A stretch of 64,000 nucleotides of DNA. It comes from Octopus vulgaris (lineage: Eukaryota). The position numbers and the translations under genes are program-made. The notes under the pieces were generated by a model. It ran no database searches. It saw only the letters and a list, made by a program, of their open reading frames with translations, and was not told where the DNA came from. The stretch is taken from assembly GCA_951406725.2 (NCBI GenBank), contig OX597826.1, positions 17,794,001 to 17,858,000 of the forward strand. The letters run 5' to 3'. Positions 9,416 to 64,000 of this stretch are shown piece after piece; position 1 is the stretch's first letter; each line of letters opens with the position of its first letter.

Positions 9416-10337
9416 ATAAATAAGATAGAATGGAATATTGATTTTGTGTGTTTGAAATGACATGAAATAAAAAGTAAATGTTGCCTCAAATCTATTGGTT
9501 TATAATATTCACCTGTCTTGATCCAGTTCAATTGTCTTTTTTAAATGAATATGTTTAAAAGGAGTTATTTATACTTTACTATTATCCATATTAAACAGGA
9601 AACTATTGTTAGTACTATCTATAAGTGTCTCAAATTCAGAAAGTCTATTCAAATTTCATACTATAAGATTAAGTAATCAGCTAAATATTTTTGCACAAGT
9701 TTTTCATATACTTTTATCACAAAGTATTAATAAATTTTTATATATTGGCTCTATCTTGGTTACCATTGCTGTTCCAAATTTTTGTCTGTATACTGTTTGG
9801 TCAAAATTTAAAATGTTTTACTAAATAGATTGAAATTTTGCAATTATAAATTCTTTCCCTATTTTGTCTGATAAATCACGAGGAAATTAATTATACCAAA
9901 AACATATTGCTTCAGTTCCATACTCATGTAGTGTATATGTATTCAAGTTAACCACATCAAATGAAACCATTGAGGCTTCTTCATTTGCTATTGGAATGTA
10001 ATTCAACATCATCTGCCTGGAATAATCATAAGCATAGACAGACATATGGCTATTCAGTCTTGGACTGTGAACATGTTGGAGGAATTGCTTTCAGCTGATT
10101 GCATTGACCTCAGTATTTTCATAATCTACTGTTTTGTTTATTGTTCTCTATTTTGCTTAACTGACAAGTAATGGGACATAAAAGGATACAACATAAAGAA
10201 CACTGGATTTTAAACTTGAGTAAACATGAATACACACACACACATACACACACACTCACATGTACACAATGAGTCTGTAAACAGTTTCCATCCACCAAAT
10301 CTCATTCATAAATGATTGGTCAACAAGAGGGTATAGT

Positions 10338-10634
10338 AAAAGACCTACGTGTTGATTGTAGACATGCTCCTTCACAAATGATCAGCTATTATTTTATAAA
10401 CAATGTTTGGAAACTGTTCATCAATAAACCGATTCCTTATGGGATTTCCCAATCAAATTGTCTGCAAAATTTCAGCCAAAAGTTTACCAATTTCAATGGA
10501 TTTCACACAAATTTGACGTCGACGTTACTTAGTTTGCTTTGAAATAAAGAGCTTGATTAGCTTAATAATCCTAACTTAATCCCAAGCAAAGCCAGGCTAT
10601 ACTGCTAGTCATAGAGTAATATACAATATCACCA
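10338..10634. repeat. Left arm of a ~297-bp near-perfect inverted repeat (partner 11240-11536)
   Basis: The same peptide appears in ORF 10312+ and ORF 11332-; arms are reverse complements. Confidence 0.95.
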
Positions 10635-10977: not shown

Positions 10978-11264
10978 GTAAATCATCTTTTAATTATGCC
11001 TTCTGTATTTGTGTGTGTTAATGTTTTCATTTGTCAGTATGAATGAGTGTGTGTGTGTAAAAGTTTATGCCTTTGATTGTGGATCTGTCCAATCAAGGTT
11101 GGTTGAACATAATAATGTCCTGAAAAACTGTAGAATTAAAAATTTAATATATACTGAGATCTGTTGTGTGAAATTCTAGAATTAACACCGGATACTATGA
11201 TATAAATGAATGCAGCCTTCATTTGCTATAGTTTTATAATGGTGATATTGTATATTACTCTATG

Positions 11265-12434
11265 ACTAGCAGTATAGCCTGGCTTTGCTTGGGATTAAGT
11301 TAGGATTATTAAGCTAATCAAGCTCTTTATTTCAAAGCAAACTAAGTAACGTCGACGTCAAATTTGTGTGAAATCCATTGAAATTGGTAAACTTTTGGCT
11401 GAAATTTTGCAGACAATTTGATTGGGAAATCCCATAAGGAATCGGTTTATTGATGAACAGTTTCCAAACATTGTTTATAAAATAATAGCTGATCATTTGT
11501 GAAGGAGCATGTCTACAATCAACACGTAGGTCTTTTGCTCTGGTAACCTCTGCTCTCTCTCTCATGTTCACGCATAACCAGCTATATATCGCTATGAGTA
11601 GAACAACGGATTCAGCTAATTTGGAAATTAGCTGTGGAGAAACAGAGAATATTGTTTATATTGTGTGTGTGTATATATATATATATACTAGCAGAATTGC
11701 CCGGCGTTGCTCGGGGCTGAATTGCTTGAAAGTACTGTTAATGATTGCTCTGAATTATGATGATTATTCAGGCAAATATTGAAATAAGCTTACGGTGTGA
11801 GATAAGGACTTAACGCCAAACGTGTGCCATTGCATTGTTTTGGGGGAACCAAATTTCTGATGAGCATTACCCGGTTTTGGTTAAACTGCATCGCAAAATG
11901 TGGGAGTAGTTAGGAATCTAAATCGGAGTAGACAGACACACAACCTTTCTTTTATATATAAATACATACATACACACACACACGCACACATACATGCATA
12001 CATGCATATACACATAAACCGAGTAAAAAATTTCAGTTATCTCTCTCTTTCACACATTACTCTCTCTGTCTCTTCACACACACTAACAGAAGCACTTCAC
12101 TTAATGCTAGGTAAATTGTAATTGAAGAAATCCTATATTGTAGATTTGTATAACTCCCAAAGGGAGGCAGATAAAATCTGCCTTTTATAATAAGAGATAT
12201 ACGGGCAACACACACACATACACATTGCGGCACTGTCATGCCTTTGGTTGTCAGAAGTGAAAGTAGTCAACTTCGTGTATTTCCGTCAGGTTTATACCTT
12301 CGTTAATTTACGCCGTTTATTTATGTACCACCACGCTCTTAGGTTTATAAAACAATTGAAGTTCAGTTTAAAGTTTATAAATAAATACATTTCATGTGTA
12401 ATGTATACACATGTGTATATATATATATATGTAT

Positions 12435-12482
<48 letters not shown>

Positions 12483-13136
12483 GTGTATATATATATATAT
12501 ACATGTGTATACATATATATATACACATGTGTATACATTACACATGAAATGTATTTATTTATAAACTTTAAACTGAACTTCAATTGTTTTATAAACCTAA
12601 GAGCGTGGTGGTACATAAATAAACGGCGTAAATTAACGAAGGTATAAACCTGACGGAAATACACGAAGTTGACTACTTTCACTTCTGACAACCAAAGGCA
12701 TGACAGTGCCAACGCATACATGCTTGTGTGTGTGTGTGTGACTGAAGCCATTCACACATACATGCATACATACATAACAACACCTGTCTGTTTGTTTTTG
12801 CCTGTCAATCACTCTCTAAAAAGATGAAATTTTAAAAATCTTTTATCTCTCTCTCTTTCTCTCTCCCTCTCCCTCCCTCTCTTTACACCGTCGCTAGAAA
12901 GTAAACAATGGTGGATTTCTCTGCCGTGAAAATTGTTAAGTTATGGTCAAAAATTTATTTTTACCGCTATTTGCTGGTGCCTCGGAGGAAAATAATTTAA
13001 CAAAAATACAGCTAAGGTCATGATGAATGTCCTCCTAAAATTGAAGTGACATGCATGCTAATTTGTGGACATGCATAAATTACATTCACGTATACACACA
13101 CACACTCACACACACGCACACACACTCACACACACG

Positions 13137-15584: not shown

Positions 15585-17269
15585 GTAAATAAATTTTTTT
15601 TTTGTTTTACTCTTAAAATTGTTTTCTTTTGCAAAAGATTAGACAACTTGTCCTTTGGTAAGATTTGTTACCTTTTGGATGATTGACAAAATTGAGATAT
15701 TTATTTAAATAAAAATCTGTCATTCAGCATAATACAGTAGAAATTGTGATAAAATAAATACCTTTTTGCCACTCTGTAAAAATCATGTGACTTTCAAAGT
15801 GAAAATATTCTTTCATTATAAAAAATCTATTACATTGAATATGGAGATTAATACATCTGCATGTTTTATATTTTTGCAGTCAATTATACAGCATATTTGA
15901 TTTAAATGTGTCCAACGCATGTTTCTGTTGCATAGATATATCACAATTGCATTTGAACCCAGTGTCTTTTGACTGTTATTTGTCTATGCAACTTTATTCA
16001 AGGTCTGTGCACTGATGTGGTCTTAATTGAACTAAATGTCTGTAGATTTAGCTAGCATTATATTTGGCCTGTGACTATAGTTTTTGAGTGCAAAGAGTAT
16101 GAGAGGAAGATTTGGAAACTTGATATGACTATAAAAACTGCTATATGGTTGATCCTCTAACGACCCTAGGTTTTTTATTTTTTCAAATAAAGAATACTAA
16201 ACCTTAAATTAGGTCAGAGAATATTTTTTTAAACCACTGGCCTTAGTTGGATTACGAATTCCTTGTGGTTCAAAAAAATATTCTTTTCTCACTGTAAACT
16301 TTCGCCTGCGGTATGTATATTTGCCACACTCTCTCTGACTCTCTGTATATGTATATCACTCATGCTGCATGTATGTGTGTGTGTCAGTGTCTGGGCGCGT
16401 GTGTATAAGGAATTTTATTACGGTAAAAGAGTCCCCATCAGCAAGCTAAGAAAAATTTTTATACTTATGCACCAAATAGTAAAACAAAAACTTAGTTTAT
16501 TGGTTCATTATAAATTGCCCCAAACAATGCAGAAATCTATCCTGATCAAGAGACCTATTTGTTAAAGTAGACATGGTCTCACATGGAACAAAAATCATTG
16601 AAATAAAAGCATTCAGCTATGAAAATTGCCCCCAGCAACAACATGATACTTAGCTACTATATATGTTCCACGTCCTCTCGTTGTTGTGTTTTCATGTTTG
16701 GATTAACTATATATATATATATTTATATATATATATTTATATATATATATTTATATATATATATTTATATATATATATTTATATATATATATTTATATAT
16801 ATATACCCATGCTAGCATGGAAAGCGGACGTTAAACGATGATGATGATGATGATGATGATATATATATATTTATATATATATTTAAATAATGAGGGAGAT
16901 AAATTAATATTAATTTTAATATCAATTTAAAACCAGTAGTCTAGCATACAAAAAATCTGAGAAATCAGAGAAAATTCTAATATATGTGTATATTGGCAGG
17001 GCAATATATATACATACATACACACATACATACATATATATACATACATACATGTATATATATATATGTATGTATGTATGTTCTGGTTTTGGTGTTGGCA
17101 CTGGCCTCTCATTACATCATAACCATTGTCTTTTTTGTTTTCTGTTGTGATGCAAAATCCATTTTTCATTACCTGTAACAATGCACTGTAGAAATGACAG
17201 ATTGTTATTCCTGTTAATAGAAGACTGCTGCAGATGGTGGAACATTGTGTTCAATTCTCAAGAATAAGC

Positions 17270-17719
17270 TCATGTGGAACCCAAATTCCCTCTCTGCATG
17301 CTTTCCCATTTTGCTCTTGAGATGTTCGTAGATAGTTGAATGTGACACAGAAAATGTTTACGCTGAATCTCTGGTATTTTGATGTGGATCCAATACAATA
17401 TTACGGAGATGTACCTGCATAGCAAGTGATTTGATCTGAGATCGTGTGCTGGAACGAAAACAATTGCAGCGTGGAAGGTGTTTGTAAGCCATTTAAGAAA
17501 CACACAAAAGCCGTTTGATTCACTTCAACATTTAAGTTTAATTTGTCAAAATATTTTCGTCACTATAAGGCCGCTACCTGTTCACTGCAGCACGGATTTT
17601 TGTCAGTGAACAGGTCGCGGTCTTACGGCAACGAAAATATTTTGACAAATTAAACTTAAATGTTGAAATGAATCGAACGGCTTTTGTGTGTTTCTTAATT
17701 GGCTTACAAACATCTTCCA
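17270..17719. mobile_element. Penelope-like pLTR remnant with inverted partial copy (arms 17472-17587 / 17604-17719)
   Basis: 116-bp imperfect inverted repeat with 16-bp spacer containing a hammerhead-like motif. Confidence 0.65.
17599..17649 (+). ncRNA. Type I hammerhead ribozyme-like motif, G3-C8 variant
   Basis: tttgtca-GTGAACA-g-gtcgc..gcaac-GAAA-atat-TT-tgacaaa: 7-bp stem I, palindromic stem III (aatatt). Confidence 0.65.
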
Positions 17720-18373
17720 GTACAATAGTTTCATTCAAAGGTTGCCATAGAGAGTGGCTTGTCTTCCAGAGCGAGGCTTGTTAGACATGTCACAATCGCC
17801 ATCTTTAAATCTTTTAAACCACAGCTAATATATACAAGCTTTCGTTGTCTCCAGATACACTTCACAGTAAGTATTGGTAACTATGCTGTTTCATAAAGTT
17901 CATATCCTCCATGGGCTGAATTACTGAAATACCTATGAATGGCACACTGCTGGATAGAAGAGATGATATACCTTTTGTAGACAGTTCCCACCCATTCAAC
18001 CTTGGCTCTGATGTGATTGGTTGATTCATATTTCATAGTGGTGAAAAAACACAATTACTTTCTGAACACCCAAGTATATATATGTACGTATATATATATA
18101 TATATATATATATAAGTTTAACAATTAAGGATAACCTCTTAATAAGGGATCTTAACAAGAAATTATCGGGTAGTTAGCGTGAAAACCTCATAAAAGAAAA
18201 GAATTCGAAAATAATTTTTTTCTCTTGAACAAATTAATTATATCTATATTGTATAGAGGGCATTATTACACATAAATGCCTCACACTAAGAGGGACAAAG
18301 TCATTACTACCAAAATTATACTAATCATACCCAAATGCAGTTTTTCAAAGCAAGACATTTAAAAAATGAATTT

Positions 18374-18431
18374 AGTTCTGTATCACCGTGATTTCACATT
18401 CAACTTACGTCTTATGATCATCAGCAGAACT
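18374..18431 (-). ncRNA. Type I hammerhead ribozyme (mirror copy)
   Basis: Reverse complement of 18458-18515. Confidence 0.75.
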
Positions 18432-18457
18432 GATTCTGAACACATGTGTTCAGAATC

Positions 18458-18515
18458 AGTTCTGCTGATGATCATAAGACGTAAGTTGAATGTGAAATCA
18501 CGGTGATACAGAACT
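18458..18515 (+). ncRNA. Type I hammerhead ribozyme
   Basis: agttctg-CTGATGA-(tcat...atgt, weak stem II)-GAAA-tcacggtga-TA-cagaact; 7-bp stem I, stem III with 1-nt loop. Confidence 0.78.
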
Positions 18516-19395
18516 AAATTCATTTTTTAAATGTCTTGCTTTGAAAAACTGCATTTGGGTATGATTAGTATAATTTTGGTAGTAATGACTTTGTCCCTCT
18601 TAGTGTGAGGCATTTATGTGTAATAATGCCCTCTATACAATATATATATATATATGTATGTATATACAGGTAATATGTGTGTGTGTGTGTGTGAATACAT
18701 ATACATGTGTAGATATGAGTGTGTGTGTATACATTTATGTATATATATTCTTTTATCCTTTTGTTTCAGTCATTTGACTGTAGCCATGCTGGAGCACTCC
18801 CTTGAAGGGTTTTAGTCACAGAAAGCAACCCCAGAACTTATTTTTTTAAGACTTGTACTTATTCCATAGATCTCTTTTGCCAAACCACTAAGTTACAGGA
18901 ACGTAAGCACATCAACACTGGTCTCAAGCAATGGTGAGAGACAACTACAGACACAAAGACACTCACACATAAATATATTCATATGGTTATGCTTAATCAA
19001 ATAATTTAATTTGCTATGAGAAATTAGTCAACTTTTGAATCCACAAATCTACCACTCCTGTCTATCTCCATCAGACTCGGTCTCTTTTATGCCTTTCCTC
19101 TCTCTATATACATTTACCACACTCTTTATCACTCTCTGTTTGTGTATGTATATCTCTCGTGCATGCTGCTCCCCACTTTCTCTCTTGATATGACGTACTT
19201 GCATTCATTTTGTTTAAAACTTCGTTATTGTAATGTTTGCTTTCATTTTATGATGGGCAGCTCTCTCGTAAAACATTCTAGCTTCCAAATCCTGTTTTTT
19301 CGGTTGGGTAAAAATGATCAAACTTTAAACCTTTGTATTGTTTATGAATTTGTTTTGCAAGATTCCTGAGGTGAAATTGTGTTGTGAAATAGACG

Positions 19396-19725
19396 TTGCT
19401 ATATTTTGGGACGGTCATTTTTTTTTTCCTACCAAATAAACACCTGCACTATATATTCACATTTCACTCATTTATTATTGTTATTTTATCTTATGTCCAT
19501 TGTCTGGAAATCTTTATGTCTAGAAAGACAGAATGGATTAAACAGAACGGGAGAACACACATAGGATGGAAGAGTCACTGAAGAGGTCACAGGTGTGTGA
19601 TAAAAGATTTCTAGACAATGCACGTAAGATAAAATAAGAACAATAATAAATGAATGAAGAACAAATATATAGTGTATTTGTTTATTTAGCAAGAAAAATA
19701 ATCGACCATTCCCAAAATATAACAA
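19396..19725. repeat. Diverged inverted repeat (19396-19515 / 19603-19725)
   Basis: Similar peptides in ORF 19396+ and 19486- reflect reverse-complement arms. Confidence 0.85.
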
Positions 19726-19815
19726 AACTTGTTTTTCCTAAGATTTTTCTGAAATACATCACTGAATTGGATTTAGCATATATATATGTGTATACCTATA
19801 TATATATAGGCACAT

Positions 19816-19854
<39 letters not shown>

Positions 19855-20371
19855 CAGAGAGACAGACAGACGCATCACTTATCATTATCTCTTCAGATTT
19901 TCTGTAGCAATTAAAGCCTGCACTAATTTTGTTTATGATGTTTCAAATCTGAGACACTTAATGGACACAACAACGAGATTGAAGAGGAAATATGGGAAAT
20001 GGGCATATATGACATATTTCAGGATCTTTTGCTCCTTCATGAGTGCCACATTTAACCCATTAATCATCCATGAACTCATTGCTTAAACAGCAACTAAATA
20101 TAGAGGTGTAACATCATTGGAAACTGTTGCTCTGTGGTGGGGGTTCAAACTTCTTACCACACAACCATCCCTTTGTATGTATGTGTGTATGTATTTTTTT
20201 TAGTCATTCAAGGAATGCCATAAATATATATTTCTACACTATCTCCACTAGTTTTACTGAATTTTTGGAATTCTATGTTAGAGGTATTACAAGATTATGA
20301 CAATAAATCAAGAAAACATTCATATTTCAAGTGTTTACATTTTGATGTTTTTCTTTTTCTTTCTTTCACAG

Positions 20372-20629: not shown

Positions 20630-21045
20630 AAAGTGTCTGTTGTTGTTGTTGTGTATGAACTGACAATGTCTGTTGTGACAGTGTGTCTTTCGCAACAGAA
20701 TCTGTGGGACAGTGTCTGGTGTAACAGCATCTGTTGTGAGAGTGTTTTTTTTATGACAGTGTCTGTTGTGTCATTTGTGACAGTATTCATGAGACAGTAT
20801 TTGTTGTGACTGTGTGTGCTACGATAGCATCTGTCATGTCATTTGTAACAGTGTTTGTGTGACAGTGCTTGTTGTGTCAGTATCTCTGAGATGGTATCTG
20901 TTGTGACAGTGCCTGTGTGATAGAATCTGTGTGGCAGCATTTGTTGTGACAATATCTGTTTTGATAGTATATGTTACAACAGTGTCTGTTACAGTATCTG
21001 TGTGACAGTATGTAGTCTGCAAAGTGTCTGTTTTGTCAGTATCAT
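20630..21045. repeat. Degenerate minisatellite, unit about 16-17 bp (gtgtctgttgtgaca)
   Basis: Repeated gtgtctgttgtgacag-like units just downstream of the exon donor. Confidence 0.85.
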
Positions 21046-33250: not shown

Positions 33251-36200
33251 ATATATATATATATATATATAAGCATTACTTATGAGGAGGCAGTGCTAAG
33301 CAGTGATGTGTATAAATACAAGCTTATTACCAGTAAAAATATGCTTGGGGCATATTCAAACCTGTAAGAAAGCCAGTCTAAGTAAGTGGTGCTGTGAGCT
33401 GATTTTGGTATATTTAAACCATTTGTCTACAGCAAGAATTTTCTCCATGACAAAATACATTGAATGGCTTTCTTATGGGTTCGAATATCTCCCAAGCATT
33501 TTTGAACTGGAAATAACCTTGTATAAGCATTAATATGTGTTAATTTGTATATGTTTTGATATGATATACGTGAGCATGCTAGTGCCCCGTCCTCAAATCA
33601 TCTGACACCTTCCTTGGATTTAAGTCTAACATGTATCATATTATATGAAGGGACCACTACACACAGTCAAATAAACTCATTATAGACGTTTTGCTCCTGT
33701 TTTATCAAACATATATACACCATCTTTTACTATCCACCAACTACATAGATTCTAAGTTTATAATAGAAGCAACTGATGAGGAAAAAGAATGTTTATTATA
33801 AAACTGCAGCCAAATTTGGTCATGGGGATAATATTCCATTCACACTGAACTATTGAAAATCATCCATCAGGAGTGTGTATGTACACACATACACACACAA
33901 TATTAGCCACAAAAGCAGTAAAAATAGTGAATGGCAATTTTTATATCCTACTTAATGTGAATGTATTGGTGGAACACCCTAATGCTGCAGTATTTGCCCT
34001 GATAAACCTTCTCGTAGAGACATTTAAAGCTTCTTAGCACTAGACATCAGTATGAGATTTCTCAAGATTATGGCATTCTAACTGTACATCCATGTGAAGT
34101 AGGGTCCATACATACACACACAGAAAGACAAATGGATGCTTCCAGGTATCTGTTTACCTTATTTACACCCTTGCTTTCTCATGGAAAATACTATTTTCTT
34201 TTAACCAATGAAACTCTAATATAACTTTGTAAATCTCCACTGCCCCTCCCCTCAGCAGTTTTTTCCTTCTTCAAAATTTTAGAGTTTGTCAGTTCTTCAT
34301 TTCTAACAAGTGACAGAAAATAAATAAATAAATAAAAGAGCATTGGTATGAATTGAACTCAAACCACCTAATTTCTACCACCAATAACAACCACCCGCAC
34401 GTCCTATATGACATTAAATCAAAGAGCTTGGGGTAGATTATGGGAGCAGTTTGCTAGAGATAAAAAAAAAAAATAGTAATACCGGAAACAGAATAGCAGT
34501 GGTGTACACGCAGTAATGGAACAATTCACTTCTGATTAAAATAAGATAATTGGACCATCCTTTCATTACTGATAGCAACCATGCAGGGTTTTTAGTTGAT
34601 TATATTGACCCTAGTAATTTGTTTAGTACTTGTTTTATTGTTCTCGTTAGAAACAAGAGTCAAGTCATTCTTTTCATCAAGGGACTTGTTCACCACATAC
34701 ACTAATATAAACATATATATGCGTGTGTATATATTTACACACACATGATGAGTTTCCATGTACACAGTGATAGTTGAAAACTTTCCCTGAATGCCATTGT
34801 GGAACTGAACATGGAAACATGTGGTTATATCTATACACACAATTTTTTTTTAAGAGTACACTATGTTCATGAATAGTGTCAAAATAAACATACATGCCCA
34901 TAGGCATAGAAACAAAATTATTTAAACATTTTTAAATACTTATAGATTTCTGCTCTAGCTAAGAAATTATTTTTTTATCCTTTTACCAAAGTTATATACA
35001 TTGTGGTTTACAAAATGGACAAGTCTATCTGAGACTTAGCTTTTGTTTGTTCTTCTTACAACCTAGCCATGTTACTGTTTAACACTAGGTCAGCCCTGCT
35101 GGAAACAGTAATTCCAGCTATGATCACTTTATCTTTTACTTGTTTCACTCATTTTACTGTGGCCATGCTGGGACACCATCTTGAAGGATTTTTAGTCAAA
35201 CAAATCGATCCTAGAACTTATTCTATTAGTCCTTTTGTCAAAATGCTAGATTACAAGGACTTTAGCACACATACAAGCGGTGGTGGAGGACAAACAGATG
35301 CAAGGACATGGACACACACACACATATATACCCTCATCCATACCAGGCCTCTTTCAGTTTCTGTCTACCCAATACTCTCACAAGGCTTTGGTCAGTCGGT
35401 CTGGAATCATCTCATTGGGAACCAAGTTTCTTATCCCACAGTCACCCCTGTACTCACATCTTTTTCCTAGATACAGTGTGTCAAAGAACACATCCAGTTA
35501 GTCACTCTTTTGAGATGTTTACTTTTGTTTCTAGCTGGTCAGCCGACCATAAAGAGGCTTCTTCATTGGCTTATTTAACCTAGCGATGTTGAGTGGAGGA
35601 TTTTTTTGCTCATAACTGACCTACTCAAGTACTCGGGAAAAATGGATATTTTAAAATGTTTTAACCCATCGATTAGCTACATTTCTCATACAGAAACTGT
35701 TAAAACATCAATTTCATTGGTCAATGCTATTTCAGTTTTATGATAATATTTGGTTTAAGGCAGCAAGCTGACAGAATTGTTACCATGATGGGCAAAATGC
35801 TTAGCAGCATTTCGTCTGTCTTTACATTCTGAGTTCAAATGCTGCCAAGGTCAACTTTGCCTTTCGTCCTTTTGGTGTCGATAAAATAAGCACCAGTTGA
35901 GCTCTGGGGCTGATGTAATTGACTTAGCCCCACTTTTGAACTTGTTGGCCTTGTGCCAAAATTTGAAATCAATTCACTTAATTTCTTGAGCAAAATAAAT
36001 AAAATATATACAACCCTTTGCATTGTAGATCTAAAAGATATTCTAAGAAATTAACATCAAGCTCACTATGCAACTTCGTTTTAGAAAAGAAAACACATTC
36101 GTATGGAATTGATTTGTTATTGTCTAACATTGTTATACTCAACTGCCATAACTGTATCTTCTGTGTCGATATCATTGTCAGATGATGTGAACAATTTCAA

Positions 36201-40615: not shown

Positions 40616-43363
40616 ATGAGCAAAAACAAGAAAAAATACAAGAGGGACAAGTTTTCACAAATGTGTTATTAATCTCATACTTGAAAAGAAAAAGGAAATG
40701 AGAAAAACAGAAATGGTTAGCATAAAGATGGGATGAAGGCAGAAAGGATGTGTGTGTCTCCTTATCTTGGCATATCATGTGATAGTTGCAAATGAGTGTC
40801 ACCATAAAACAAGCAGATGAAGTATTACTTATGTTTGAAAACAGTTGACTACTGGCAATAGGAAGGGCATCCAATTGTAGAAAGTTTGCCTGTAACAAGT
40901 GTACATTAAAACGATGATGAAGACGACCATGATAGCTATTAAAAGAATGTTCCATATTTTGGGAACCAGTTATATAGCATTGCATGTTAATTTGGTAATA
41001 TGTAGTAATAGTAACGCAGGTGTGTTTACGTTCCCATAACTTAGTGGTTTGGCAAAAGAGACCGATAGAATAAGTACCAGGCTTACAAAGAATAATTCCT
41101 GGAGTCGATTTGCTCGACTAAAGGCGGTGCTCCAGCATGGCGGCAGTAAAATAACTGAAACAAGTAAAAGAGTTAAAGAGAGCAGGTATTGCAAAGCAAT
41201 GGTTGATGATATAAGGGAGGTAATAAATAATTGTTACCCTATTACAAGTTGTACTTATTTTGAATGTATACTCACAATTATACTTGTGCATAGAAGGATC
41301 TTGAAAGTATATATAATGTATGGGGGGGGGGGGGTTAAAGCCATGCATCAAAACATCTGACATTTCATTTATATCACTATTATTAAAGGAGAATTCTTAG
41401 CACATCAGGCAAAATGCTTAGCAGTATTTCGTCCATCTTTATGTTCTGAGTTCAAATTCCACCAAGGTTGACTTTGCCTTTCATCCTTTTGGGGTCAATA
41501 AAATAAGTACCTGTTGAGTACTGAGGTCAATTCAATTGACTTACCCATTCCCCTGAAGTTGCTGGCCTTGTGCCAAAATTTGAACCCATTATTATTATTA
41601 TTATTCATCACGTATAAGTATGTGTTCATTATCTTATTCAATTTTAGAAAAAATTGAAGCAATAGAGGGTGCTTTTATGTGCCACCGGCACAAGAGCCAA
41701 TCAGGCGGTACTGGCAACGACAACGCTCATTATTTTCTTTCTTTCTTCAAGAGTATTTATGAATTTATGATAAAACATTTTCGCTGCTACTATAGTATGA
41801 CATCTATCAACTGTCGGTAGTATGAAATATGTCAAAAATCATAAAACATTTATTCAAAAGGAGCATAATAAACAGTAAAACTTACTAAAAATCATAAACA
41901 CCTGCTATTGATCTTCTCATTTAAATTGGTGGAGTGGAAAAACTGATTTCCTTCCCGAACTGAGCAATATGCATGGCACCATTGTTTCGGACATCTCAAT
42001 ATTGGCTAGATTTCTCCCATTCTATTCCTCTTTCTTTTTTCTTGCATTTATGACAAGGAGGTAAATTTCCTACCTGGTCAATAAGATTGTGCTCTCCCAA
42101 AAGGGACACCGCTTCATCTTCACTTGAGATTATTTTGTAAAAGTCTCTCGCCAGCATGGTGCTAGTGTGAACAACTAACTAAATGGGCTAGAATTAATTG
42201 AAGGCCATAAGTGGGTTGTTTGGTAGAATGCATTGTCATTTACGGTAGGTTGCAAATAGCATGGTCAATATCATACGATAGTAGCACCACATTTTCTAAC
42301 CTTCAGTGTTAGTAAAGCTGAGTTTTTACACACATCCCTGGTAAACATTCAGCGATAAGCATATCTTTGATATATAATAAAATAAAAACAGAAATTAATA
42401 AATGATCACCAAATATAGGAACAAATAAATTTCTTATATTGGTACAAACTTACAATTTTGTAAGGGAAGACTGCAAGCAACATAATTGCATCACATACCC
42501 CACTCCACCAAAAAAAAACAAAAAAAAAACTGTGATTTTAAGCAATGATAGTCATTCTGGATCACATCAGTACTTTGTGATAAACGTCAGCATAGAATAC
42601 TTAAAGTAAATTGATGGGACAAATGAATAATGAGATCCCCCAACCCATCTAGGAAGACAATTACTCCAAACAAGAACTGATGCAAACTATGACAATCTGT
42701 CCAGTCTATGCAAGTATGAAATGGGATATAAAATAATAATGAAATGAAACCTGATGCTGATTGGTAGGTTCAGAAAAAGATTTAGCCAATAACCAGTTTA
42801 AAGGGATGCTGAGAGATTACAGAGAATATGTATTTTATTTCATAACACTAGTTATATTAACATGACAGGTAAAATCTTGTAAACGCGTACAGTAATTCAA
42901 AATGATTTCAACGCACAATTCAGACGAGCATTATTTTACAATTTATTTCATTTATAGACAGACTTGTTTTAGTACATTTGAACATTTTCATTGTTGGAAC
43001 GATAGCTTCTTTTCAGCCTTTGTAAAGGATTCTTCTTTCTGCAATTGACCACTTAACCATAATTGAGTGCACATCTATAACACTATTATAGCTATAGTAA
43101 ACTTTGATCATCAAAGCTAATATTCAATGCAATTCCTTAAGACATTTCAAACCAAAAAGTGACTGATCAGAATTTTGCATCCATTTCAATTATCAAATGT
43201 AGACACATATAACATCAAAGTACACCTAGTATAAAACTAGAATCCACCAAATAAATAATAATTAGTTGCTGGAATAGTAGCTTTGAGGTCACATTGTTAT
43301 ATATTATGTTGTAACCCTAGATAGGGCACAAAGCGTATTTTGACTCATTCAGCTTGGCTGAGG

Positions 43364-43576
43364 ACAAGTACGAAAACATACTTGAATGATTAGTAATAAG
43401 AAAGGACACAACTATCCTTGTCTGGTTATTAAACACCTTTTTCATGTGATGTCCTGCTAAGGAAGAAACGAAGAAATGAAGAATAAGACATCACATGAAA
43501 AAGGAGTTTAATAATCAGACAATAATAGTTGAGTCCTTTCTTATTGCTAATCATTCAAGTATGGTCTTGTACCTGT
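43364..43576. repeat. Inverted repeat, 90-bp arms, 33-bp spacer
   Basis: 43364-43453 is the imperfect reverse complement of 43487-43576. Confidence 0.88.
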
Positions 43577-44255
43577 TTTCAGCCATATATATATATATGT
43601 ATGTATGTAAGAATATGTATATATATATATATACACACATTTGTATGTATAAAACAGGATAAGTGACATGGTAGAGTGATAAGAACATTGAAACACTGCA
43701 TTAGAAAAAAAAAAAAAATTTGAGTTGAGCCTAGAAATGACTGTCTGAAGAGTGTTGTTGGATGAATAAACTCAAACTCAGTGCAGGACAAAGATACACA
43801 AAATGAAGTTCATAGAACATAAACTTTAAATTACTTCATCAATAAGCCATAAAAGAAAATTGTAACATTCAGCTGTAAAAGTATTTGCTTTAATAATATA
43901 CAATTTCATAAAACGTATCTCACCCCTGCTATCTTGAAATAATAGATACAACCCATTAAAAAAAATATGTCTATCAGTACCAATTAGTTGACTTTTTTTA
44001 AGTAATCAGGTCATTTGAAGACCTGATGAAACTCATAAGAATACTGATAACTTGATGCTATAATGGAATAAAATAGAAATAGAGGTAAATTTGTGAAAGA
44101 AAAAAATAAGGAAACCACCTGCAATGTTTCATGTACAATTAATGTTAAACCCAGCTGAGAGAACAGTCAAATGAATGAGGACAAGATGGAAAGGGATTCT
44201 TGTTCCAGACACACCAAGGAATTACTTCTCTTTCATCAGTTAATTAAAAAATGTT

Positions 44256-44684
44256 TTAATAACGGTATTTAGTAGAATAATCCTTTGGTGAGACAACAAG
44301 ACCACGTCCCTTTCTTGCCCCTCGATACACAGTCTCAACAATATCAATGAATTCCTGACAATCTTCTAAGGCCCAGTTTATCTTATTGTTGTTACCAGTC
44401 CCTAAATCAATCATGATATGCTTATTACGATAGAAAAACATGACCGTGCAGGGGTCGTATAACTCATACATCTTGTTGAAGTCAGGAACTTCAGTAATGT
44501 CTACAAGATAGATTACAACAAAGTTTTTGATTTTTTCAGCACATTTATAAAGTACTTCATCCATAACCATGCAGGTGGGATCCCAGTCATGACCAAACCG
44601 GATGACAACAACACGATCTTCCTCTGAGAGAATGGCCTGGTCCACTTGCCAGCCATTGTGGAGATGAGGTAACATATACGACAT
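44256..44684 (-). CDS. TXNL4A: Thioredoxin-like protein 4A (Dim1, U5 snRNP 15 kDa), 142 aa, single coding exon
   Basis: MSYMLPHLHNGWQVDQAILSEEDRVVVIRFGHDWDPTCM...GRGLVVSPKDYSTKYRY; true start is the ATG at 44684; splice acceptor at 44732-44733. Confidence 0.98.
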   Translation of the reverse strand: MSYMLPHLHNGWQVDQAILSEEDRVVVIRFGHDWDPTCMVMDEVLYKCAEKIKNFVVIYLVDITEVPDFNKMYELYDPCTVMFFYRNKHIMIDLGTGNNNKINWALEDCQEFIDIVETVYRGARKGRGLVVSPKDYSTKYRY

Positions 44685-44790
44685 TCTGGCTGGATTATTT
44701 TGTTTTACTTCTTGAAAGTTGACATAGAACACTGCAAAAAAAGAGGAAAAAAAGGTAATAATAATTATAAATACAGAATCAAAGAACTAT

Positions 44791-45024
44791 TTTGAATTTC
44801 TAAATGTCTCAGAGAGACATGAGCGGTGGAGGAGCGATAGAGTGGTTGTATACTGTCAACTTAACATGACAGTCCCATACAGGGAATTACCCCACTGCTA
44901 TTTAGCCCTAGGAAGCACAGGAAATTGTCAAAGCCGACAAGAAGCGTCGATGCTTCCTGAGGCTAAATAGCGGTGGTGTAATTCCCTTTACAGGACTGTC
45001 ACGTTATGTTGACAGTATACAACC
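44791..45024. mobile_element. Short insertion with 74-bp inverted arms and an 11-bp target-site duplication
   Basis: caaagaactat at 44780-44790 and 45024-45034; arms 44844-44917 / 44951-45024. Confidence 0.75.
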
Positions 45025-45431
45025 AAAGAACTATAGTTGTTATTTTAATGTCCATATGCAGCCATGGTTATGAGTTGTTAGGGAAATTGTTGGACCGAAA
45101 TGAATGCTACAGTGCTTGAAGTTCATAAAACCAGGAGATGAGTTTTTTGTATGTTAAAATAGGTTGGATGTGTTCCTCTTTCTTATAAATTACTGGTTTT
45201 AAACACAATCCTATGCCGACAATGCCAGATAACAATAAAACATAACATCAACTTACATTTGCAGGGTTAAAAATAAAAGCAATTCTTTGCGATTGTTACA
45301 GTGGAACAAGATTTTTGTTCTTGGATAGCAACTGTCGTTTCCTATTTGCTTACCTTCAGAAAGTATGAAAAATAGCTAAGATTTTCTTCAAACTTTGCTT
45401 TTGCTACATATTTTGACTATATTTTAACTTC

Positions 45432-45892
45432 ATCTGCCTCGAATTGGCTGACGGAACCGTTAGCTTGACGGACGAAATACTTTGGGGTATTTCATCCGTC
45501 TTTTCGCTGTGACCTACAATTCTGCCTTTTTCTTTTGGGGTTGATAGCATAAGTACCAGACAATCGACTTCCCCTCAAAAAACTACTGACCCCTTGCCAA
45601 AGTAAAGCAAAAAATATCTGAAAGTGGAAGATCATACATTGTTTTTTTTTTCTTCTTCTGCTGGTTGTGAGAAACTGGCAGATAGAACTGAGACTGCATC
45701 AAAGCAGATAATGGTTTCAAATTTTGGCACCGGGTCAGTAGTTTTTTGAGGGGAAGTCGATTGTCTGGTACTTATGCTATCAACCCCAAAAGAAAAAGGC
45801 AGAATTGTAGGTCACAGCGAAAAGACGGATGAAATACCCCAAAGCATTTCGTCCGTCAAGCTAACGGTTCCGTCAGCCAATTCGAGGCAGAT
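45432..45892. repeat. Near-identical inverted pair of a diverged SINE segment (45432-45592 / 45732-45892)
   Basis: 161-bp arms with about one mismatch; both share the same departures from other family-B SINE copies. Confidence 0.9.
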
Positions 45893-47182
45893 AAAGATTT
45901 CTAACTTCAGTATTTATCTTATCATACACTGCACAAAGGATGTTTACCAACACATTTATGGATCCCACCAACAAAGCCAACAGGGGAACTTCTAAAATTT
46001 AGAGTCTAAATCAGGGGTTCTTAACTGGAGTCCAGATAAGATGGGGGGGGGGGGGGGTCAACAGTCATATTTTAGCAGCCTGTGAAAAAATTTTACTTTA
46101 GAGGTATTTATTGCAAGAAACAACTACATTTAGGTTTCTTTCTATAATGCCTTACATACTTCAACATGTTCACTTTGAGGGTGCTACTGCAAATCTACAC
46201 AAGCGAACGTGAGAAAAAACAAAACAGGAATTGAGAAAGAAGTCTATAATTAGCTTTTAAACGTGGAATGGTTATGGGAGTCCACCAGAATAAAATAGTA
46301 ATCATTTTCCCCTTTTCCGACAATTTTTATTCATTTATTTGCGAAATACGTAGAAAAATATGAAGATTACGATTCTGAAAAAATTAAATTTAAATTTGTT
46401 TATTTTTTTCCATATTCTTAATGTCCGTATTTTCCCACGTAGATTGATGAAAAAAATTCGAAAAAAAGTTTTAAAACAACTACAAAAATAAACCCACTTT
46501 AATTTCACATGAATTATTTTGTCATATTACAACGGGAAATTACTCTGAAAGAAATCTTTGCAGAACGGTTAGTAGATTGATTACATTATGTTATCGCAGT
46601 TTTGTGAGATTTGGCTGTTATTTCTAGCATGTGGATAACCTGCTTGAAGGCCTGAGGGTATATATTCTTTTGTTTTTTTTTCTGTTGAAAAATTGAAATT
46701 TTACAAACAAATTTTTTTCAGAATCGTAATCTTCGTATTTTGCAAAAAACCCCAAATAAACAATATATATATCCATTTTACCGGAAGTTATGACGGAAAA
46801 ATCGGATCTTGTGAATTTTCCGAAAGTCCCCTCCCCACCCCCAGGGTCATTAGCGCGCATTTTTTTTCTTGTTCCCGGGTGAAGATCTTTATGGCGAAGT
46901 TTACCGAAACTATGCCGATCTTTATATATTGATCAATATTTATACTTTCACCCCACGATTTTCACTAAGGAAAAAAAAACCCTCGGACTGTTTGCGTGGA
47001 ATCAAGTACCATATCTTCCTATCGCACGGGTGAAAGCATCAAAGTTTACCGGTAAAAGATGGTTGACAACCACAAGTCTAAAGAGCTATCCGGTTTGCTA
47101 GAAACAGCAGTCAAATCTCCCTCAAACCTGAGTCGGATAATCTGCTACGACTAGACGCACTCAAATGATAATAATAATAATA

Positions 47183-63309: not shown

Positions 63310-64000
63310 ATTGATGTTCATAACTTACATTTGACGGATATTAGTCCTCATCTTGTTAACACAATGTTTCGGCTGATATACCCTCCAAGCCTTCATCAGG
63401 TGTCTTGGAGAAATTTCAAACCTGGGTTCTCATTCCTAAGGTATTTTTCGATGTTGTTATTGCTGGAATTGAACTTGGAATCTTGGGGTTAGTAGCTCTT
63501 AACCACTACGCCATATGCCCATGGGCAATTATGGAGTGAATTTTAGGGCTTATAAATCTAACATTTTCCTGTCCTTCCTTAATACCAATTCCCATATGCT
63601 ACTAGTGTTCTCTATTATTTTAACTTCATCCCACAGGGGAAGTTGGTCTCCATTTTCCCATACATGATCAGCTATACCCGATTTTTCAATATCTCGTTGT
63701 GTCACAGCTTTGCAATGTTCCTCTACCCTTCTTTTGAGGGGGTGGCATGTTTCGCCTTTGTATAACCTACCACAACTGCATGGGATGGAGTATACGCAGT
63801 GTTTGATCATGTTCTCTTCTATTGGTGGTTTTACTTGAAGGCGATATTTGCGAAGAGTTGTATTACTCTTGAACACTGTCCTGATGTCCTATGGGCCACG
63901 TATCTTTTATATCTTTCCAGAGAGGCCTTTCACATAGAGTAGGCAGACTATGGACAGTTTATTGGTTTCATCCCCTCTTTTCTTCATAATTGGAGTGGAG
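63310..64000 (-). mobile_element. Penelope-like element 3' end (GIY-YIG endonuclease and pLTR)
   Basis: ORF 63550-63876: CVYSIPCSCGRLYKGETCHPLKRRVEEH...SGIADH. Confidence 0.9.
63358..63403 (-). ncRNA. Minimal type I hammerhead ribozyme in the Penelope pLTR
   Basis: acac-CTGATGA-a-ggct...agcc-GAAAC-att-gtgt on the - strand. Confidence 0.75.

Follow-up and report, generated by a model that had tools for sequence, protein, structure and literature searches.

An intron of a P4-type phospholipid-translocating ATPase gene in Octopus vulgaris contains the insert described below. The window analysed here, a 64,000-nucleotide stretch of contig OX597826.1 (positions 17,794,001 to 17,858,000, assembly GCA_951406725.2), carries exons of a P4-type ATPase gene and, within one intron of that gene, a head-to-head insert whose parts are listed in Table 1. 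The exons on either side of the intron match PF16212 at positions 1-44 and 32-151 and join in frame, which bears out the intronic location given in the initial annotation. The two arms of the insert are complementary at 200 of 200 bp in a repeat search of the window, with no mismatches and a spacer of 0 nt, and a second repeat-finding method extends them to 206 nt. The exact palindrome first reported, centred on 18444/18445, is thus real at the level of the assembled letters. The same annotation had placed (TA)n on both sides of the palindrome. This holds on the right; on the left, the tail intervenes before the TA tract is reached. With the tail included, the insert measures 531 bp (18114-18644), larger than the 400 bp first given. 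Both of its ends lie inside (TA)n, so that a target-site duplication cannot be read. The inner 11 nt of the tail (18234-18244) are TA-like. As had been noted for the palindrome, no long ORF occurs in the six frames of 18114-18445, and a Hydra-like N-terminal motif is also absent from this segment. No second copy of the palindrome repeat was found within the 64-kb window.

Table 1. Parts of the insert and of its host intron (positions within the window)
Feature	Position	Strand	Description
Host intron	15585..20371	+	4,787 nt, GT..AG, phase 0; P4-type phospholipid-translocating ATPase gene; splice sites from sequence
Left (TA)n tract	18075..18113		True left boundary of the insertion; inferred target; from sequence
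One-sided extension (tail)	18114..18244	-	131 bp; long 3' end of the repeat; left arm only
Left arm	18245..18444	-	Copy of the repeat's 3' end with 5' truncation, running into the tail
Type I hammerhead motif	18374..18431	-	Antisense in host pre-mRNA; descriptor match at 18424
Apex	18444..18445		Self-complementary AT dinucleotide; common 5'-truncation point of both arms
Right arm	18445..18644	+	Inverted 5'-truncated copy with short 3' end, without tail
Type I hammerhead motif	18458..18515	+	Sense in host pre-mRNA; predicted cut after 18508
Right (TA)n tract	18641..18656		From sequence

Other features of the window are described here in their own right. In the same ATPase gene, two 300-bp inverted copies that are 99.7% identical (10335-10634 and 11240-11539) lie around an exon-bearing stretch of ~600 bp; they could pair around the exon in the pre-mRNA, or they could reflect a recent inversion or an assembly duplication. 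A palindrome of ~530 bp (12208-12739; 94% arm identity) has a TA/CA microsatellite at its centre, and a tail-to-tail joining of its arms through this repeat is possible. An older, MITE-like palindrome (17472-17719) shares the intron with the insert and lies 500 bp upstream of it; it has 116-nt arms that are 91% complementary and a 16-nt spacer, and contains no hammerhead core. Directly after an ATPase exon lies a degenerate tandem array with a GT-rich unit of 15-29 nt (20662-20990). Four diverged palindromes (33316-33524, 43355-43585, 44843-45025 and 45428-45896) have arm identities of 72-83%, and the one at 43355-43585 has a hammerhead-like core at its start (43358) and a TA tract at its end. 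The minus strand at 44256-44786 encodes an unbroken DIM1 (TXNL4A-like) frame that matches the Pfam model over its full length (E=1.5e-69). Also on the minus strand, a decayed Penelope-like end lies at 63340-63888, with a minimal hammerhead core at 63399 after a frame that carries a candidate GIY-YIG-like motif; for this frame, Pfam gives nothing up to E=1.

A palindrome of this kind, or its spacerless apex, might be an assembly, chimeric-read or polishing artefact. Fold-back chimeras or cross-arm polishing would produce arms like these, identical at 200 of 200 positions and separated by nothing, and inverted structures of Penelope-like elements (PLEs) are reported to be troublesome in assemblies (PMC8557442). 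The surroundings of the insert argue against such an origin: the right arm ends in (TA)n exactly where many other copies of the repeat end, the left flank is not mirrored, and the host exons continue in order on both sides. Older palindromes with diverged arms (72-94% arm identity) also occur several times in the window, so that such structures are normal here. An artefact is accordingly rated as very improbable.

The initial annotation had placed a hammerhead ribozyme on each strand of the palindrome, and the parts of the motif are found at both positions as predicted structures. On the plus strand, stem I is formed by 18458-18464 and 18509-18515 (7 bp), the core consists of CUGAUGA (18465-18471) and GAAA (18494-18497) with an AUA triplet, and stem III has 5 bp and a 1-nt loop (G18502). 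The stem II region (18472-18493, 22 nt) is weak and interrupted; the canonical G10.1-C11.1 pair that closes stem II is absent, and a U.U is found at the base instead. The features that mark a hammerhead, namely the CUGANGA core, GAAA, an NUH triplet and the type I order with open stem I, are all present. A descriptor search of both strands found only 2 sites in the window, one per strand, and the same descriptor gave 1 match in 60 dinucleotide-shuffled 64-kb windows searched on both strands. Rfam returned 0 matches at gathering scores, and no hammerhead was among its 41 matches up to E=10. The microRNA-precursor matches in Rfam were set aside, as all fall below the gathering score and reflect hairpin shape only.

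The insert belongs to an abundant repeat family. Twenty of 24 listed public sequencing runs (9 studies, 5 organism labels) contain at least half of its sampled words, and no RNA run is among the listed holders of these words. When contigs from four runs were placed on 18114-18462 as the reference, 2,321, 811, 1,130 and 776 contigs matched, at 85-100% identity and in 28 of 30 bins per run; summed depth was not taken as copy number. The multi-copy nature proposed for the element is borne out by these 776-2,321 contigs per run. Exact 20- and 22-base patterns, used to look for longer copies, matched no locus in three collections of contigs (metagenome, prokaryote and viral).

This family has two recurrent ends, a short one (18245) and a long one (18114), and the insert carries one of each. 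The ends are recognized because (TA)n replaces the repeat at 18239 in at least 41, 19 and 19 contigs of three runs, a mirror of the right-arm end, while 18114-18244 is continuously covered, as heavily as the arm in all four runs. One contig record (X12 record 11) spans 18238/18239, matching 42 letters on one side and 34 on the other with 8 differences; the arm-tail join is therefore present in a diverged copy too. It is the 1 of 32 listed pieces that crosses this point with at least 31 letters on each side; five others cross it with fewer. At the opposite limit of the arm, 3 contigs of run X5 match up to 18445 and then continue into a common unrelated sequence of ~22 letters, a continuation seen in one of the four runs among the 24 loose-end observations listed out of 237. 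Other copies thus run past 18445, which makes the apex a point of truncation in a parent element that is longer upstream. The palindrome had been taken for a complete ORF-less element, and this part of the initial annotation is not supported, given the X5 contigs among the observations listed. Subfamilies that differ in stem II and have a loop III of 2 nt are represented among the loose ends within the ribozyme; stems I and III are otherwise kept. No contig of the four runs lies over 18450-18462; contigs drop rare forms, so this gap is uninformative on the apex. A MITE reading of the insert was rejected on account of the unequal ends, the (TA)n stops at two fixed points and the continuation beyond the apex.

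Within this family the insert is probably a young copy, as had been proposed. Only one of its 331 independent bases is near-private: at 18224, in the tail, its base differs from more than 99% of the depth in all four runs. Four variable sites listed for the arm reflect polymorphism within the family, and the insert has the minority letter at one of them in run X12. The identity of the arms together with the single near-private base suggests youth; gene conversion or polishing could also be a source of identical arms.

The architecture of the insert is known from EN+ PLEs. Craig et al. (2021) describe an inverted 5'-truncated copy beside the 5' end and a tail of 30-40 bp, often at one end only (PMC8557442). 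Arkhipova et al. report palindromes at the junction of head-to-head repeats, for which self-priming was proposed (PMC3846280), and Cervera and de la Pena report opposite-strand ribozyme pairs, 100-700 bp apart, that most likely come from truncated elements (PMC4209133). In the in vitro work of Frangieh et al., a PLE protein nicked each of the two strands and extended them, and initiation at two sites delimited the tail (PMC11167929). An inverted 5'-truncated copy and a tail on one end only are both present in the insert, which shares with these elements its head-to-head arms, palindromic junction, one-end extension and AT-rich target (PMC3846280; PMC8557442; PMC11167929). It differs in the length of its tail (131 bp versus 30-40 bp) and in that its arms share one end point exactly, neither separated by a spacer nor offset by an overlap. 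The Penelope-type inverted structure and the TA-repeat targeting suggested at the outset both gain support, the former from the head-to-head arms and one-sided tail, the latter from the (TA)n in which the insert and other copies end.

A more specific likeness is to the Hydra clade of C-terminal EN+ PLEs, with which the insert shares a (TA)n target, a type I ribozyme near the 3' end, a 1-nt loop III and the core layout CUGAUGA-U...U-GAA. By our own count from the supplement of PMC8557442, (TA)n is the target in 26 of 27 Hydra families. Among the 25 families with a ribozyme row there, U.U stands at the stem II base in 14, stem III consists of 4 bp and a 1-nt loop in 16 (File S2), and 23 place the ribozyme at a distance of 87-210 nt to the 3' end. 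The corresponding distance in the insert is 207 nt to the short end and 338 nt to the long end. Penelope-13_HM likewise has an inverted 5' copy and a ribozyme on both strands (PMC8557442). The insert departs from the clade in its stem III of 5 bp, where 3-4 bp characterise the clade, one pair above any of the 25 families listed in that supplement, in its long interrupted stem II, and in the lack of an ORF in this copy. Hydra-1_Obim of Octopus bimaculoides has the same loop III layout but a different ribozyme and flank sequence. Identity with this element was rejected, as 4 of 5 short motifs were absent from the PMC8557442 supplement and the fifth was an unrelated match. Proteins of the Hydra clade are defined by a reverse transcriptase (RT) with RWK and DKT motifs, a CxCX5C linker and, at the C-terminus, GIY-YIG without CCHH. 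No RT or endonuclease sequence is linked to the repeat family here, and its putative placement in this clade follows from ribozyme layout, spacing and target; the insert likely works like a Hydra-type PLE end.

The preferred reading, to which we assign a probability of about 0.7, is that two head-to-head copies of the end of the abundant repeat make up the insert and were laid down in one insertion, their source being most likely a Hydra-like Penelope retroelement whose 3' end they represent in 5'-truncated form. A Penelope-type endonuclease would nick both strands of the (TA)n tract, and reverse transcription would start at two sites of the element RNA, one with the 131-nt tail and one without. 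Both cDNAs would stop 13 bases upstream of stem I and join by annealing at the self-complementary AT. A zero-length loop is hard to obtain via direct fold-back, so two cDNAs are slightly favoured; a single cDNA that folded back and lost its loop later would give a similar product. In an anole element, initiation is reported at sites without homology to the target (PMC11167929), and the TA-like stretch at the inner end of the tail may therefore be a coincidence.

A different parent would leave the insertion mechanism unchanged. The repeat may be a non-coding, retrozyme-type sequence copied in trans by Penelope enzymes, with the insert as a truncated two-armed copy. None of the frames of the 331-nt unit holds an ORF, a Hydra-like N-terminal motif is likewise missing from it, its copies are very numerous, and retrozymes reportedly derive from pLTRs and often occur as solo copies (bioRxiv 10.64898/2026.07.22.740005). 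Metazoan non-LTR retrozymes are described as non-coding, AT-rich, about 300 nt long, equipped with a type I ribozyme and present in many copies (PMC7229834; bioRxiv 10.64898/2026.07.22.740005), all of which resembles the insert. The U.U at the base of stem II also occurs in the axolotl retrozyme HHR_Amex2 (PMC7229834), so this feature does not separate the two readings. However, head-to-tail tandems and circular RNAs are the defining traits of these retrozymes, whereas the insert is head-to-head. The window has no same-strand tandem and one ribozyme per strand, and no head-to-tail joint was found in the four runs within 18114-18462, a reference that leaves the upstream part outside. The ribozyme layout and spacing are, moreover, close to those of the Hydra families in the supplement. 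A retrozyme parent is thus considered unlikely.

Predicted folding bears on how the ribozyme would act in each setting. For the lone motif, the hammerhead fold (-8.7 kcal/mol) lies 4.6 kcal/mol above the best fold (-13.3 kcal/mol), which corresponds to a probability of about 1e-4. For two copies, the double hammerhead is at -30.9 kcal/mol, the best dimer at -32.9 and two monomers at -26.6; the best dimer shares intermolecular stems I and III with the double hammerhead and has a slipped stem II. These models favour a ribozyme of the dimer type, as expected for tandem PLE transcripts, and in such transcripts of the parent it would work as a dimer. The single minimal motif of metazoan PLEs is reported to have no in vitro activity (PMC4209133), and a PLE ribozyme was found to cut only when its protein was present (PMC11167929).

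In the host pre-mRNA the situation is predicted to be different. The full hairpin of the palindrome is calculated at -344.7 kcal/mol, and all 7 core bases are paired with their mirror at a probability of at least 0.999 at four transcript lengths. The core would be paired from the moment of its synthesis, so that no cutting is expected in the host pre-mRNA; the ribozyme would sit locked and uncut in a 200-bp hairpin as a by-product of geometry. The proposal in the initial annotation that the antisense arm pairs with the ribozyme is therefore supported as a predicted fold. The annotation's view of this pairing as a protective switch is unnecessary, since a hammerhead fold of the lone motif is predicted to be very rare and the masking comes from geometry.

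The strength of this hairpin and the near-complete pairing of the core once made could also be read as a sign that selection has kept the head-to-head form, either as it switches the ribozyme off in introns or as a 200-bp dsRNA useful to the host; Xenopus introns are reported to be depleted in retrozymes (bioRxiv 10.64898/2026.07.22.740005). Masking is automatic, however, on either strand and in any head-to-head copy, so selection is not needed as an explanation. A hammerhead fold of the lone motif is predicted at about 1e-4, metazoan PLE ribozymes are reported to be inactive as monomers or dependent on their protein (PMC4209133; PMC11167929), and the copy looks young and bears no sign of conservation. 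Selection has only a very slight chance of being the cause. A broader and rather improbable proposal is that palindromic copies silence themselves on both strands and are tolerated in introns, whereas sense copies that stand singly or in tandem are eliminated there. Perfect 200-bp hairpins, produced across the genome by twin priming at two fixed start sites 131 nt apart, would then feed RNA editing or small-RNA pathways.

No description of this repeat family was found in the literature or the supplement searched; supplements of the retrozyme preprint may list relatives. All structural features of the insert are already described for its class, the longer tail and the 5-bp stem III being small departures. 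The insert is thus a clean, young example of a known Penelope-like insertion footprint and a useful test case. For the origin of inverted copies in PLEs, self-priming has been proposed (PMC3846280) and two-strand extension has been shown in vitro (PMC11167929). Two cDNAs primed from opposite strands would leave an apex without a spacer, together with a short end on one side and a long end on the other, and the abundance of the family lets the short-end/long-end pattern be counted. The finding would carry more weight only if palindromic copies prove to be enriched in introns, or if their hairpins prove to be edited or diced.
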